A DNA stretch of 4,242 nt from the IMG/VR virus record IMGVR_UViG_2740892017_000001. One strand, written 5' to 3'. A program made the position numbers and the translations under genes. This document shows positions 1 to 4,242 of the stretch, piece by piece (position 1 is the stretch's first letter; the number at the start of each line of letters is the position of its first letter). The notes under the pieces are model-generated. The model ran no database searches. It saw only the letters and a program-made list of their open reading frames with translations, and was not told where the DNA came from. The stretch comes from a virus. Taxonomy: Duplodnaviria > Heunggongvirae > Uroviricota > Caudoviricetes.

Positions 1-452
1 GCGATCTGTTCAAATGTTATTACCCGATCTCGATGGAAGTTATTGAGTGATCTCCTTTCATGAAAATACGCAAAAGTCGACACACGGCTGTAAGCCACAC
101 CCGCCATCGCATACGCGCTGAACCATTCATTCACGCGTACAGACGGCCCCGCCATCACGCTGAACCAGCGGTTACGCACGGAATCTTCATGCCAGCGGGT
201 ATCGCTGTAGCGCGTTTTTTGCTCATCCTCAGCATTGGCATAACTGAAGGACGTAATCAGCCCCAGCGCGTCCGTAAACTCATAACGGTATTTCACGTTA
301 ATCCCGTTCAGATCATCACTACCGGGAACGTTCGTCGAGGCATGGAGATACCCCGCGCTCAGCGTGGACTGATGTTCTGCTGCACTCGCTGGCGTAGCAG
401 CGGCGACCTGCCAGACTACTGCGGACAAAATAACAGCACATAATTTACGCAT
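1..452 (-). CDS. lom: Lom-like outer membrane protein (Ail/Lom/PagC family); the Lom-like part covers about 72..452, then the open frame continues with unrelated sequence to the window edge (probably truncated or fused, possibly a pseudogene)
   Basis: Minus-strand ATG at 452..450 with a GAGAGG Shine-Dalgarno (plus-strand complement at 458..463) 5 nt upstream. My manual translation gives MRKLCAVILSAVVWQVAAATPASAAEHQSTLSAGYLHASTNVPGSDDLNGINVKYRYEFTDALGLITSFSYANAEDEQKTRYSDTRWHEDSVRNRWFSVMAGPSVRVNEWFSAYAMAGVAYSRVSTF, a signal peptide plus the first beta-strands of an Ail/Lom-type barrel, closely matching the first ~127 aa of lambda Lom as I recall it. After codon 127 (about nt 72) the translation becomes AYFHERRSLNNFHRDRVITFEQI..., which does not resemble Lom or any beta-barrel strand pattern. 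There is no stop before the window edge. The supplied ORF track does not list this partial ORF; I derived it by hand. Confidence 0.8.
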   Translation of the reverse strand, partial: MRKLCAVILSAVVWQVAAATPASAAEHQSTLSAGYLHASTNVPGSDDLNGINVKYRYEFTDALGLITSFSYANAEDEQKTRYSDTRWHEDSVRNRWFSVMAGPSVRVNEWFSAYAMAGVAYSRVSTFAYFHERRSLNNFHRDRVITFEQI

Positions 453-471
453 AATTACCTCTCGCTTTTCT

Positions 472-503
472 GCAATAAAAAAGGCGCCATTTCTGGCGCC
501 CGT
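472..503 (-). terminator. Rho-independent terminator between J and lom
   Basis: On the minus strand: GGGCGCC-AGAAAT-GGCGCC followed directly by TTTTTTTATT. This is a perfect 6-7 bp GC stem with a 6-nt loop and a U-run, starting about 17 nt after the J stop codon. There is no T-run on the plus-strand side, so it is unidirectional for minus-strand transcripts. Confidence 0.75.
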
Positions 504-519
504 ATCTGGGTTATAAAAT

Positions 520-3500
520 TCAGCTAATCGTGATGCCTGCAGTGGCTTTCTTCATCACCACAACCAGCAAATCGCTGATACTTGCTGTGGGATACCAGTT
601 ATTTACCAGCCATGCTGACACCGAAAACTCCAGTGTCATGTGACCGTGACCGGCAGGCATATCAATAACACCACTGTAAATCAGCGTATTATCCAGCGCG
701 GTACGGTTATAAATTTCAGCACCGTTTTTCCGCACTATCAGACGGCATGAGGAGTAAATATCAGTATGCTCTTTCTCATGTTTAGCGCCGCTGAATGCCA
801 CCGCCGGAATAACAATCTGCCGGTCAAACGGCTGATCGTCATAAACCCTGACGGTAATGGTTCCTGATGGCCACCGCTCCGGTGCACGGGAGTCCCGGGG
901 GAAAGCTTTGCCCACTGTTTTAACGAGATCGCCTTCAATCTGGTTCGCGGACAATTTTCCCAGAACCCGACAGTTCTCGTTAATCGTGACGTTGTTGAGC
1001 GTCCCGGAGTTCGCATTCACGTTACCGCTGATATCGGCATTTTTCGCCGTCAGCCGCCCGTCCGGTGTCAGGGAAAATGCCGGAGGATTACCGCCGCTGG
1101 TAATGGTGGGAGCCGTCAGATATTTCAGGAACACTTCATTCATAAATATCTGATCGCCCTGACCAACAAACATCGGCTTTGTGTTGCCATTCGCAGGATT
1201 AATCATCGCAATCCTGTCTGCCGCCAGCAGCACCTGACTCTGCATTCCTGCTGGCGTATTCTCAATACCGGCACCGATACCCGCAATATAAAGGCGTCCG
1301 TCCTGCATCTGCTGCAGTTTCACGGCCCACATGCTGTTCAGGTTATTATTTGTATCAACCTGAACTTTCTGTATCTGCTGGATTGCCGCACTCTGATTTT
1401 CCAGTTTTTTATTGACGGTCTGCGTGATTTCATTGCTGACATTCGTAATGGACGTCCTGATTTCAGCCAGGTCCGGCGCAAGCTGACCGTTATCAATCTG
1501 CGTCCACAGCTCCTGGGCCAGATGTGTTTTCCCGATTTCTCCTTTGAAAAAATCCAGGTAACCTTCCGCATCATCGCTCGCCCGACCGACAGCCTCCACG
1601 AATGCCGATTTGCCAACAGTATTCACACTGCGGATATAAAAATAATAATCATGGCCCGGTTTGATATTGATACTGGCAGCTATCCAGTACAGCGCCGAGC
1701 CAAGATAGCGGGCTGCGGTTTCAACCTGCCTGATATCCGCAATCCGCTTTTCCGAGAACCAGAACTCAAACTGTACCGTCGGGTCATAAACGGCAAGATG
1801 TGGCGTTGCGGTTATCTGAAAATAGCCCGGCGTCAGCTCAATCCGCGACGGTGCTGCCGGTGCGGCAATCCGGAAGGTGGTGGTGGCAGGTTCACCCTGC
1901 TGGCCATAGCTGTTTATCGCCCGCACCGTCAGGGTGTATTCCCCGAGCGGCAGGCCGCTGAAACGGTGCTCCGTGTCTGCGGTGATGGCGGTGGTCACCA
2001 GTCTGGCATCCGTTCCCTTACCACTGGTCAGGCGCAGACTGAAGCGCACACCCTTCACCACCCGCGGCGTGTCCCATTTCGCCTGCGCCAGATACTGGCC
2101 GTCAGCTGCGCTCACCTCCACCGTCAGGTGCTGCACTGCCGGTGGGATGACGCTGTTCAGGGAACCTGACTGCGGCTCAAAGCGGGCACCGTTATCCACG
2201 ATGGCTTCTTTTTCCGGTACGTGCTGCACCGCCGTGATGGCAAAGGTGCCGTCCGTGTTTTCCCGGATGGAGACACAGCGGAACAGGCGACGGCGCAGTG
2301 ACGGCAGGGAGAGTCCCCACACCCCGTATGTCTCCACACCATCAGGCAGGGTACTGACCTGTATCCGGTCCGGCGCGGGGTGTGCGGTGATGTCCACACT
2401 CACCGGCTTACCGCTGCCGTTAATCAGGTTCACCGCCGATGTACCTGTCTCCGGCAGGGTAACCTCACGGTCCAGCGTCAGGGTGCGGGTGGCAGCATCA
2501 ATGGACAGGACACGTCCGCCGGTCAGGGTCCCGGCATAGTCATTATCACAGATTTCAATAATGTCACCGGGTGTGTGCCGCAGCCCCTGAGACCCGAGCG
2601 TGAAATCCACCGTCTGCGTTTCCAGCAGTTCGGTCTTTATCACCCACAGTCCGGCACGGTGGGCCTGACCGCGGCTGGTACAGCCGAACGCGTCCATCTT
2701 CAGCAGGTTGCGTCCGTAGCGCAGTATGGCTTCCGGGTCTTCCACCAGTTCCGTGGAGGTCTGCCAGCCGTTCTGCGGGTCGGTGTAATTCACCTCCACC
2801 GCCGTGTGCCGGTCCTTCAGGGCACTGAAGCTGTAGCGGAATCCCACGCCGTTATCATCCACCACCACATCGCTGTTGGTGTACGGCCACACCACATCCG
2901 ACGGGCGGTCCTGAACGAACGTCAGCGTCTGACCGTTCCATACCGGCATACAGCGCATCGCAGAGCAGAAATCACTGAGAACGTCCCACGCCTTACGCTG
3001 TTGTGCCAGGTACGCATTAAAGGTCATCCGCGGCTCGGTCCCCCCGAAACCATCCGGGACCGTCTGGTCGCAGTACTGCCCGATGGCATACAGCGCCCAC
3101 TTGTCCACATCCGCCGCCCCCAGACGTTTTCCCATGCCGTAGCGCGGGTGAGTCAGCATGTCCCACAGACACCAGGCCGGGTTGTTGCTGTATGCCGGTT
3201 TCAGACTGCCGTCCCAGATACCACTATACGTGCGTTTTTCCGGGTCATAGTTTGACGGCACCTGGATGATGCGACCGCGGATATGGTAGTTCACCGTCAT
3301 CTGCTGGCCGCCGAACTGCTCCGCATCCACCTGCAGCCCCACAATGGCCGTGTTCGGGTAGCACTGTTTCACATCGATGATTTCGGTGTATGACGACCAC
3401 AGCGTCTTATTCTGCAGCTGGTCCGTGGTGCTGTCCGCCGTCTCCCTGACCATCCGGATGTTAAAGGGCCGGGGAGGCAGATTATCCAGAATCACCGAGG

Positions 3501-3993
3501 CCAGGAACTGTGAGGTGGTCTTGCCGTTAATGGTGACGTCCTTTTCTGTCACCCAGTTACCGTTACGCTGTAACTGAATCAGCAGGCGGACGGATGCCGG
3601 GTTACGGTCACCCTTTGAGGTGGTCTCCACCAGTGACTGCACCCCGAAGGTAACCCGCAGGCGGTCAATGTTCGCGGACGTAATGGTGCGCGTCACCGGT
3701 TTTGCCTTCGTCACTTCCACGCCCAGTCCGGTTTCAGCTCCGGAGGACTCAAAGCCTTCCGGTGGTGTCTGCTCCTGCTCCCCGGCGCGCCAGACCGCCG
3801 TCACACCGTGTATCACGGGATTGCCGTCCGTGTCCGTCAGTGGGGTTTTGTTCACCAGAATACTCTGCAGTCCCTTCACCGGACCTTCTATCGGTCCCTC
3901 ACCAATCGCATCAATCACGCTCATCATCTGCGTGGATTTGAGATTATCCTTCGCCTCACGAGGCGTGTGTGCCTTACCGCCACCTTTTCCCAT
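520..3993 (-). CDS. J: Lambda J-like central tail fibre / host specificity protein (tail tip attachment protein), 1157 aa
   Basis: Single uninterrupted minus-strand ORF, ATG at 3993..3991, stop TGA at 522..520. It is preceded by a Shine-Dalgarno-like GGGGAAGG (plus-strand complement at 3998..4005) 4 nt upstream of the ATG. The N-terminus [22 protein letters not shown], and internal motifs such as [55 protein letters not shown] and [41 protein letters not shown], match my recollection of phage lambda gpJ (1132 aa) nearly residue for residue over most of the length. Size and position next to lom also match the lambda J-lom arrangement. Antisense ORFs inside it are GC-driven artefacts. Confidence 0.95.
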
Positions 3994-4090
3994 ACAGCCT
4001 TCCCCTGAATAAATTAACCGCCACTTGCCATTCCGTACAGAAGTCGGATATCCTTCGCCCGAAAAGCATGAAACACATTTCTGCCATGCT

Positions 4091-4131
4091 AAAGAGAAAC
4101 CCCGGTATCAGCAGATACCGGGGTTTTCTTT
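4091..4131. terminator. Strong GC-rich hairpin flanked by A-run and T-run; candidate bidirectional intrinsic terminator upstream of J
   Basis: Plus strand: AAAGAGAAA-CCCCGGTATC-AGCA-GATACCGGGG-TTTTCTTTC. This is a perfect 10-bp stem (4100..4109 pairing with 4114..4123) with a 4-nt loop. It is followed by a T-rich tract on the plus strand (4124..4131) and, read on the minus strand, by TTTCTCTTT (complement of 4091..4099). Confidence 0.55.
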
Positions 4132-4174
4132 CATGCCCACCGATAATCCTGTTGGTTAAAACCGGTAATGGTAA

Positions 4175-4209
4175 GCGTCAACGGAGCACCGTATTGACGC
4201 TTATTTATT
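4175..4209 (+). terminator. Second hairpin followed by a T-rich tract (weaker terminator-like structure)
   Basis: GCGTCAA(4175..4181) pairs with TTGACGC(4194..4200), and an inner CGG/CCG extension (4182..4184 with 4189..4191) encloses an AGCA loop. It is followed on the plus strand by TTATTTATT (4201..4209). On the minus strand it sits immediately after a TAA stop (4203..4201) but lacks an adjacent U-run. Function uncertain. Confidence 0.3.
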
Positions 4210-4242
4210 GGTGAGTACTACGTTCCATGGCAGGAGTTCGTC
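4201..4242 (-). CDS. Possible 3' end (last 13 codons, ...DELLPWNVVLTNK*) of an unidentified ORF entering from beyond the window
   Basis: Only one minus-strand frame is open from the window edge; it ends at TAA 4203..4201 and the other two frames hit stops within about 10 codons. The C-terminus does not match what I recall of lambda gpI (tail assembly protein I), but my recollection of gpI is unreliable. Far too short to identify. Confidence 0.25.
   Translation of the reverse strand, partial: DELLPWNVVLTNK

Follow-up and report, generated by a model that had tools for sequence, protein, structure and literature searches.

In phage lambda, the tip attachment protein gpJ (TipJ) comprises a hub, two FNIII/Ig domains, a tail-tip fibre segment and a C-terminal receptor-binding domain that engages the trimeric porin LamB (PDB 8xck and 8xcj). 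Receptors have also been located for other J classes: phages phi330, 434 and Gifsy-1 use OmpC, and phage 21 natively uses LamB, with a single J mutation adding OmpC use (PMC11336670). gpJ-A8, which derives from a natural Escherichia coli phage J and whose domain has natural counterparts in phages Chlobot and SPF_0923, also binds OmpC (PMC11338833), and its structures are available in a closed state (PDB 9wca) and, as gpJ 713 in complex with the E. coli EDL933 OmpC G17, in an open state (PDB 9wcb). gpJ-1A2 is an engineered lambda chimera (Brödel et al. 2024, Nature; PMC11338833) that retains the lambda hub, FNIII domains, short helical shaft and β-prism and carries a receptor-binding cassette in recoded DNA; it is used in the STEC therapeutic candidate EB003 (bioRxiv 10.1101/2025.02.28.640725). 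According to the authors of these studies, both chimeras recognize OmpC, not LamB (PMC11338833; bioRxiv 10.1101/2025.02.28.640725).

Here we analyse a 4,242-nucleotide stretch of viral DNA (IMG/VR record IMGVR_UViG_2740892017_000001; hereafter the window), for which an original prediction, made from the sequence alone, had proposed that a divergent J end implies a receptor other than LamB. Our analysis indicates, with a probability of about 0.88, that the J end in the window is a 1A2-type domain that docks on the trimeric porin OmpC rather than on the maltoporin LamB, and does so selectively for the ompC allele. OmpC binding by this type of domain is neither new nor unusual: experiments have established the receptor of the identical domain, Pfam lists the family and structures of related complexes have been solved.

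The J gene and its mosaic organization

The window contains the J gene of a lambda-like E. coli prophage (Table 1). It is a 100% nucleotide match to J of Escherichia phage vB_EcoS-783R2, where the identical DNA has the gene order H-M-L-K-I-J-lom, with J in the I–J–lom position of the lambda tail module; in the window, the I side of J is replaced by an insertion sequence (IS) end. The encoded protein shares 69% identity with lambda gpJ over its whole length (BLASTP) and has the lambda domain order, with PF24801, PF13550, PF24421, PF24489, PF09327 and PF12421 (FNIII-A_GpJ, Phage-tail_3, Ig_J, Ig_J_second, Phage_Tail_Tip and Ig_GpJ_C) all above their curated cut-offs. The product would form a trimeric central tail fibre.

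Identity to lambda gpJ is distributed unevenly along the protein. Residues 1–810 are 77% identical (627/812), as are residues 901–1003, whereas the last 154 residues (1004–1157) are only 41.5% identical (66/159), a fall with a Fisher exact p = 4e-18 relative to residues 1–810. The strong divergence that had been claimed for the last ~150 residues is thus borne out. The C-terminal peptide quoted for the window is the exact end of the open reading frame 3993..520, and the lambda C-terminus given for comparison matches NP_040600 in the BLASTP alignment. The first ~800 residues, described as a close match to lambda, are homologous, but at 77% fall short of near-identity, and the boundary given at position 985 needs correction to the codon boundary at 984, residues 1004–1157 being encoded by 523–984.

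A second divergent block lies in the region that we call the alpha-helical shaft, following the naming in PMC11101478. Its residues 826–895 are identical to lambda gpJ at 12 of 70 positions (17%), with a net 25-residue insertion. This block, which the original prediction did not mention, is even more divergent than the C-terminal end. The wider shaft segment (residues 811–900) is 97–98% identical to those of phage 21, Stx2a_WGPS6 and Chlobot, and 59% identical to that of Stx2a_WGPS2.

Downstream of J, as in lambda, lies the 5′ part of lom, annotated as Lom in the matching records. The hairpin between J and lom occupies a site at which terminators are annotated in phages 21, 434 and mEp460; a promoter/terminator scan of the window yielded no more sites than shuffled sequence. 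An Rfam scan returned only two sub-threshold matches to snoRNA models within the J coding sequence, which we regard as chance.

Table 1. Features of the window, with residue numbers referring to the J protein unless stated otherwise.
Feature	Position	Strand	Residues	Description
Gene J (central tail fibre/tip attachment protein)	520..3993	-	1–1157	Intact 1157-aa ORF plus stop codon
Second mosaic module, alpha-helical-shaft region	1309..1518	-	826–895	Sequence unrelated to lambda's; 25 residues longer
Receptor-binding cassette	523..1041	-	985–1157	NADISG|NVNANSG...; segment grafted in chimera 1A2; includes 523-984
Ig-like C-terminal receptor-binding domain	523..915	-	1027–1157	Pfam PF12421 Ig_GpJ_C, E = 4.5e-37
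Variable loop 1	871..891	-	1035–1041	SRAPERW; high column entropy; between predicted strands
Variable loop 2	754..780	-	1072–1080	HEKEHTDIY; high entropy
Variable loop 3 and flanking strand ends	676..708	-	1096–1106	High entropy
Variable loop 4	640..657	-	1113–1118	MPAGHG; entropy profile; between predicted strands
Variable loop 5	595..615	-	1127–1133	AWLVNNW; high entropy
Terminator-like hairpin between J and lom	482..501	-		Consensus scan: 8-bp stem, 6 G-C pairs, then TTTTTATT
5′ part of lom (Ail/Lom outer-membrane protein gene)	73..452	-	1–130 of Lom	Pfam Ail_Lom E = 3.6e-82

An exchangeable cassette with five variable loops

A comparison with J genes of Shiga-toxin phages shows that the J end behaves as an exchangeable cassette. 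The J protein of Stx2a_WGPS6 is 97% identical to that of the window over residues 1–600 and 811–1003 and 89% over residues 601–810, and carries a 434-type end that is 39% identical; at the nucleotide level, identity is 85–100% upstream and collapses at the cassette. Conversely, the J protein of Stx2a_WGPS2 has a different shaft and shares the window's end (98% identity).

Column entropy over 17 homologues revealed that the variability of the domain is concentrated in five inter-strand loops, and that the strands between them and the C-terminal tail are conserved, in agreement with the proposal of conserved flanks around a re-tailored middle. Loop 1 has indel differences from the phage 21 and A8 types, and loop 2 is 5–6 residues shorter than in these types. 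Loop 3 overlaps the gap between the strands predicted at positions 108–115 and 119–128 of the structural model, the variable positions of loop 4 are H1116 and H1118, and loop 5 is unlike across the window, A8, phage 21 and lambda types.

The structural model, an AlphaFold2 prediction of the C-terminal domain compared with the lambda gpJ domain as the original prediction had proposed, is a β-sandwich with a mean pLDDT of 79 (block means of 81–97 across most of the domain core, lower toward the C-terminus). Its four best matches in the PDB, 9wcb, 9wca, 8xck and 8xcj, are all gpJ C-terminal fibres (TM 0.70–0.71; E = 7e-19 to 1e-16), so the predicted domain has the Ig-like β-sandwich fold of gpJ. 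Sequence searches likewise matched the solved gpJ chains (9wca, E = 7e-108; 8xcj, E = 2e-86).

Identity to the 1A2 graft

We compared the cassette with the 'GpJ 1A2' DNA in the supplement of PMC11338833, which was available as machine-converted PDF text with base drop-outs. Plain tblastn on this text gave identities of 48–60%, which are misleading through frameshifts. We used instead a three-frame search for exact words, run alongside controls, the 1A2 gene having been located via the lambda J start and then translated. From NADISG|NVNANSG onwards, the translation matches window residues 985–1157 at every readable position, across the variable loops. Within exact 5-mers common to the machine-read 1A2 DNA lie 163 of 176 residues, compared with 27 for lambda, 29 for 434 and 78 for phage 21; the other 13 residues are at OCR frameshifts only, and are compatible with identity but unconfirmed by exact words. 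The class-specific residues KHEKEHT and ATAGITIS agree between the window and 1A2. The window's natural DNA words have no match in the same supplement, because the graft was recoded.

Receptor phenotype of 1A2 particles

The published behaviour of 1A2 particles therefore bears directly on the window's domain. In wild-type MG1655, which is LamB+ and carries the K-12 OmpC, 1A2 delivered to 5.2% of cells at an MOI of 50, compared with 97.7% for wild-type lambda, and delivery rose to 98.7% in MG1655 carrying ompC-EDL933 (Fig. 1b source data; PMC11338833). In MG1655 ΔlamB ΔompC supplied with ompC in trans, 1A2 delivery at the highest MOI was 76% or more for 20 of the 23 alleles; alleles G1, G2 and G40 gave ≤2%, the K-12 allele being among the non-functional ones (PMC11338833). 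The OmpC of the ST131 strain TN03 was permissive (PMC11338833). The source-data sheet for Extended Data Fig. 2c of that study duplicates the panel b values for 1A2 and A8, and the ΔlamB ΔompC plus OmpC-EDL933 result thus rests on Extended Data Fig. 8a.

The proposed receptor other than LamB is accordingly upheld, since lambda particles that carry the same cassette in 1A2 switch their receptor from LamB to OmpC (PMC11338833; bioRxiv 10.1101/2025.02.28.640725). The non-LamB conclusion is supported because of these experiments, and not through divergence alone, from which it was originally drawn: the conclusion was right, but the reasoning was insufficient by itself. Divergence cannot tell LamB from another porin, because the J end of phage 21, the nearest characterized natural relative, is equally far from lambda's and uses LamB. 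Because the window occurs as exact copies in chromosomes of the O25:H4/ST131 type and the TN03 OmpC is permissive, we also count the host match for OmpC.

Comparison with other J ends

The window's domain and 1A2 share their C-terminal residues, as described above, and the 1A2 receptor is OmpC, used allele-selectively and independently of LamB. They differ in context, the window's J having a shaft 25 residues longer and, N-terminally, a part of the EHEC-prophage type with 77% identity to lambda. A8 has the same fold, provides the best structural match and shares the conserved strands and C-terminal motif with the window, but its domain is only 60–63% identical, with loop 1 four residues shorter and loop 2 5–6 residues longer. 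In function, A8 accepts K-12 OmpC, whereas 1A2 does not and performs better on alleles G55, G56 and G67 (PMC11338833).

Lambda gpJ belongs to the same family, with the same domain order and an Ig-like C-terminal domain inserting loops into a trimeric porin, but its domain is 42% identical and its receptor is LamB rather than the OmpC of the window type. Phage 21 J has the closest domain among natural characterized phages (64%), with a shaft and prism 96–97% identical to the window's, but the ancestral phage is LamB-only (PMC11336670), and sequence differences lie in loops 1, 2, 3 and 5, of which the first two are also of unequal length. Thus, no identity above 90% to lambda gpJ or to a LamB-using J, which would have spoken for unchanged specificity, was found. 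The ends of phages 434, phi330 and Stx2a_WGPS6 are lambdoid and also OmpC-directed, but form a separate sequence class, the window being 39–41% identical in the domain to the 434, WGPS6 and mEp460 ends, which have other, longer loops. The 434 type lies outside the window's class, so that OmpC use is seen in three or more classes of J end.

We rejected an assignment of the receptor by the nearest characterized natural phage, as phage 21 (64%) points to LamB and the A8 type (60%) to OmpC, although these two ends are 81% identical to each other. The literature on lambdoid J ends, long-tailed Stx phages and ECOR temperate phages contained receptor data for other J classes only, and literature searches on phages with the window's ending (PhiR5_1, PhiR49_2, PhiR55_1, vB_EcoS-783R2, PPompW, Chlobot and HannyBb) yielded none. 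The PPompW paper concerns prophage integration only.

Alternative readings

The J frame may be a relic: an intact reading frame in a degraded prophage, with no role in infection and serving only as recombination stock for other lambdoid phages. We regard this as a serious, though minority, possibility. Window positions 4172–4242 are an end of the IS66-family element ISEc23, on the upstream side of J and 178 nt from its start; the lom reading frame is broken near position 72 and, in a matching chromosome, continues into the IS21-family element ISEc12; gene I is likewise split in that chromosome; and the protein database contains many frameshifted copies of this domain. Virion assembly may thus never occur for this IS-flanked copy. 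Against this, the frame of 1157 codons is uninterrupted and identical to the J of vB_EcoS-783R2, and the window is too short to reveal the state of the remaining prophage. A relic would concern this copy and not the specificity of its domain, and is compatible with OmpC recognition by the 1A2-type end.

It is quite unlikely that the native J uses a further receptor together with OmpC, or another primary receptor, hidden from the chimera experiments. Such experiments could miss a further receptor because 1A2 is a graft on the lambda backbone, from which the window's native hub (77% identical) and longer shaft differ, and because the recipients were all K-12-derived. The native shaft module is unlike lambda's, evolved J variants of phage 21 and lambda can use two or three porins simultaneously (PMC11336670), and Gifsy-1 J has been reported to engage several outer-membrane proteins. 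In the lambda system, however, specificity maps to the C-terminal domain, the graft of which alone switched the receptor (PMC11338833), and the ≤2% delivery with non-permissive ompC alleles in the ΔlamB strain argues that no other K-12 outer-membrane protein substitutes.

That the domain still binds LamB, its divergence reflecting drift or adaptation to LamB variants, is compatible with the size of the divergence: phage 21, whose ancestral form is LamB-only (PMC11336670), has an end with 46% identity to that of lambda and 64% to that of the window. Continued LamB binding is nevertheless highly implausible, and already contradicted for K-12 LamB, given that particles with the identical domain reach 5% of LamB+ K-12 cells against 98% for wild-type lambda, deliver efficiently in a ΔlamB background with a permissive ompC allele, and gain access to MG1655 when the ompC allele alone is swapped.

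Proposed mechanism

By analogy with 1A2, the native full-length J with its OmpC-directed end would behave like the chimera, accepting the majority of OmpC variants that occur naturally in E. coli, among them the O157:H7 EDL933 and ST131 TN03 forms, and not the K-12 form. The docking geometry can be modelled by homology with the solved lambda gpJ–LamB and A8 gpJ–OmpC complexes: the distal variable loops of each domain would touch both the lumen and the extracellular loops of a single porin monomer. Porin binding would then spread the three receptor-binding domains apart, and this movement may be relayed via the β-prism and helical shaft, opening the tail tip for DNA ejection.

Implications for lambdoid prophages

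No other J ending is as common among E. coli genomes as the window type, the DNA of which is present in 3,349 of 5,426 complete genomes, where it is annotated as gpJ. Allele selectivity may divide E. coli lineages into those that admit and those that exclude the dominant lambdoid prophage family, which includes long-tailed Stx phages; that it would be a main driver of OmpC surface-loop diversification, and that the longer-shafted native J might have a further receptor, belong to the same speculation, which we consider doubtful as a whole.

The J-end domain decides which E. coli strains lambdoid prophages enter, including the long-tailed Shiga-toxin phages with the same ending, and a domain of the window's type serves to target an engineered delivery particle directed against STEC. 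Knowledge of a 1A2-type ending makes host range predictable from the ompC allele, and explains why such phages are not expected to use K-12 laboratory strains via the J fibre.

J and its divergent C-terminus

Over its whole length, the window has its matches in lambdoid prophages and phages; positions 9-4171 are identical to the Escherichia phage vB_EcoS-783R2 (100% nucleotide identity), in which J bears the annotation 'tail tip host specificity protein J' and the gene order is H-M-L-K-I-J-lom. The J frame is intact in the window, and its product contains six gpJ Pfam domains arranged in lambda's order. The I-J spacer, part of which occupies 3994-4171, is long (342 nt in vB_EcoS-783R2 versus 60 nt in lambda), and contains a strong G+C-rich inverted repeat near 4098-4131 (AACCCCGGTATC...GATACCGGGGTT), after which the minus strand reads TCTCTTT; this hairpin has a terminator-like appearance and lacks an Rfam family match.

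Features of the window and of its J protein
Feature	Position	Strand	Basis or detail
Gene J, long ORF, 1157 residues	3993..520	minus	ORF listing
PF12421, 'Tip attachment protein J, C-terminal receptor binding domain'	J residues 1027-1157		Pfam, last of six
Five variable segments of the J domain	J residues 1035-1041, 1072-1080, 1096-1106, 1116-1118, 1127-1133		
Terminator-like hairpin, between J and lom	501..482	minus	
lom, 5' part	452..73	minus	Pfam Ail_Lom

The original prediction held that the C-terminal region of J, at 523-985, diverges from lambda gpJ, and hence that the receptor is not LamB. The C-terminal peptide that it quoted is the exact ORF product, the lambda C-terminus that it gave matches NP_040600, and the end coordinate that it stated misses the codon boundary, 984, by a single base. 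The divergence is confirmed: identity to lambda gpJ is 77% over residues 1-810 (627/812) and 77% over residues 901-1003, as against 41.5% over residues 1004-1157 (66/159), and the drop from the first of these segments to the last is far greater than chance would give (Fisher p = 4e-18). A second divergent block, absent from that prediction, spans J residues 826-895 (window 1309-1518), is 17% identical to lambda and is 25 residues longer; it lies in the region named the alpha-helical shaft in the lambda structure paper (PMC11101478). The wider shaft segment (J residues 811-900) is 97-98% identical to those of phage 21, Stx2a_WGPS6 and Chlobot, and differs from that of Stx2a_WGPS2 (59%), whose end is nonetheless like the window's (98%). 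On these alignments, the helical-shaft region is a second mosaic module of J, swapped independently of the receptor-binding end.

Comparison with the 1A2 graft

A PDB sequence search with the last 259 residues of J placed 'A8 gpJ 713' (9wca/9wcb; E = 7e-108), the domain of which is of the Chlobot/SPF_0923 type, ahead of lambda gpJ (8xcj/8xck; E = 2e-86). A8 is one of two characterised gpJ chimeras, the other being 1A2 (Brödel et al. 2024, Nature, PMC11338833), and the 'GpJ 1A2' DNA, with a recoded graft, is printed in the supplement of that paper (PMC11338833). We took this DNA from machine-read text with OCR drop-outs, and compared it by three-frame translation and exact 5-residue words. The translated pieces include PERWPSG, VYDDQPF and FDRQIVI, and 163 of the last 176 residues of the window's J lie in exact 5-residue words common to the 1A2 text; the other 13 fall at frame breaks of the machine-read DNA, which is compatible there with the window's residues. 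The same test gave lower scores for the controls lambda (27), 434 (29), phage 21 (78), PhiR49_2 (115) and WGPS2 (151). Therefore, as judged by word matching, the window's domain is the 1A2 domain itself.

Receptor of the 1A2-type domain

At an MOI of 50, 1A2 particles yielded 5.2% GFP-positive cells in wild-type MG1655, which has LamB and the K-12 OmpC, and wild-type lambda particles and A8 yielded 97.7% and 95.7%, respectively (PMC11338833). With the EDL933 ompC allele as the sole relevant change in MG1655, 1A2 delivery was 98.7% (Fig. 1b source data, PMC11338833). In MG1655 ΔlamB ΔompC supplied with natural ompC alleles, delivery by 1A2 at the top MOI was at least 76% with 20 of the 23 alleles, and at most 2% with G1, G2 and G40 (PMC11338833). 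G1 is numerically the MG1655 allele. The permissive alleles include G17, which is that of EDL933 (title of 9wcb; matching numbers), and G33, which by matching numbers is that of the ST131 strain TN03. The source sheet of Extended Data Fig. 2c (ΔompC ΔlamB with OmpC-EDL933) duplicates the MOI and delivery values of panel b (OmpC-MG1655) for 1A2 and A8, and we left this panel out (PMC11338833); the duplication looks like a source-file copy error, and the EDL933 result is in other panels. In a later preprint by the same group (10.1101/2025.02.28.640725), gpJ-1A2 is again stated to recognise EDL933 OmpC 'rather than LamB', and it serves there in the therapeutic particle EB003. The published delivery data thus support a receptor other than LamB, as predicted, namely OmpC in an allele-selective manner, with the behaviour of the native full-length protein read from the chimera.

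Divergence from lambda alone does not settle the receptor. The phage 21 ending is 46% identical to lambda's, as distant from lambda as the window's ending is, and ancestral phage 21 uses LamB only, a single J mutation adding OmpC use (PMC11336670). Because phage 21 is the nearest natural characterised relative of the window's domain, it would have predicted LamB. OmpC is the receptor of the 434 class and of the long-tailed EHEC phage phi330 (PMC12502783), the genome of which is closest to WGPS6. At the J C-terminus, the domain of phage 21, which uses LamB, and that of the A8 type (Chlobot, SPF_0923), which uses OmpC, are 81% identical, so the LamB/OmpC switch probably lies within a few loop substitutions, which fits the reported single-mutation gain of OmpC use by phage 21.

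Exchange of J endings

In an alignment of J proteins from eleven lambdoid phages, the last ~154 residues sort into discrete classes: a lambda type, with LamB as receptor; a phage 21 type, with the sub-types Stx1_499 and Chlobot/SPF_0923; a 434 type, including mEp460 and Stx2a_WGPS6; and the window type, found in vB_EcoS-783R2, PPompW prophages, Stx2a_WGPS2 and PhiR5_1, with PhiR49_2 at 88%. The window-type ending shares 42% identity with that of lambda, 64% with phage 21, 60% with Chlobot and 40% with 434. The J of Stx2a_WGPS6 shares 97% identity with that of the window in residues 1-600 and 811-1003, and 89% in 601-810, yet has a 434-type end. Binned nucleotide identity shifts abruptly near a conserved junction sequence and again past the stop codon. 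The J ending is thus a cassette that can be exchanged.

Among 17 homologues, variability in the end domain clusters in five segments (Table), which fall on inter-strand loops of an AlphaFold2 model. Three relatives (P0028, P0030 and P0032) are intra-domain mosaics, window-like in the first half, including loop 1 (RD[SP]RAPERW), and of another type in loops 2, 3 and 5; specificity loops may therefore also reshuffle inside the domain.

Structural model

The AlphaFold2 model of J residues 985-1157 has a mean pLDDT of 79; block means are 81-97 for most of the beta-sandwich and fall toward its C-terminal end. Its best structural matches (TM 0.70-0.71) are two A8 gpJ structures, one open in complex with OmpC and one closed, and two lambda fibre structures, one closed and one bound to LamB. 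In lambda, each of the three domains engages one LamB monomer, inserting four distal loops into its extracellular lumen (PMC11101478); on binding, the domain bases spread, and the tail tip opens as the change travels along the beta-prism and the helical shaft (PMC11101478). For docking geometry and for the behaviour of the native, longer-shafted J, we infer that the window's J would follow the lambda mechanism with OmpC as the porin, and its five variable loops would form the allele-reading surface.

Genomic context and prevalence

The 71 nt at window 4172-4242 are the end of the IS66-family element ISEc23 (minus-strand end ...GTTGACGCTTAC), which adjoins the I-J spacer at a distance of 178 nt upstream from the start codon of J. 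None of 5426 complete E. coli genomes has exactly this junction; in NZ_OZ039398.1, that ISEc23 end is 239 nt farther off. At the other side (window 1-72), the Ail/Lom resemblance of the lom frame ends after residue 130 of 150 translated; this stretch occurs at 100% identity in many genomes and in the phage record vB_EcoS-783R2, and in the matching chromosome NZ_OZ039398.1 the lom sequence runs into the IS21-family ISEc12, with the remainder of lom beyond. The prophage surrounding the window's J is probably degraded. Chromosomes of O25:H4/ST131 type, among others, carry exact copies of the window.

Protein relatives of the J domain are found in E. coli, E. albertii and Shigella, and include many frameshifted fragments and intra-domain mosaics; five of them (P0027, P0034, P0035, P0037 and P0098) are frameshifted translations, consistent with many decaying J prophage copies in E. 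coli. The finding is already known: the domain belongs to a curated family, experiments have established which receptor the identical domain uses, and related complexes have been solved. Of the 5426 complete E. coli genomes, 3349 carry the 465-nt J-end segment at roughly 90-100% identity, with a median of two copies per genome; among the matches listed, the copies are annotated as gpJ or phage tail tip protein. The window type is the most frequent J ending of E. coli.
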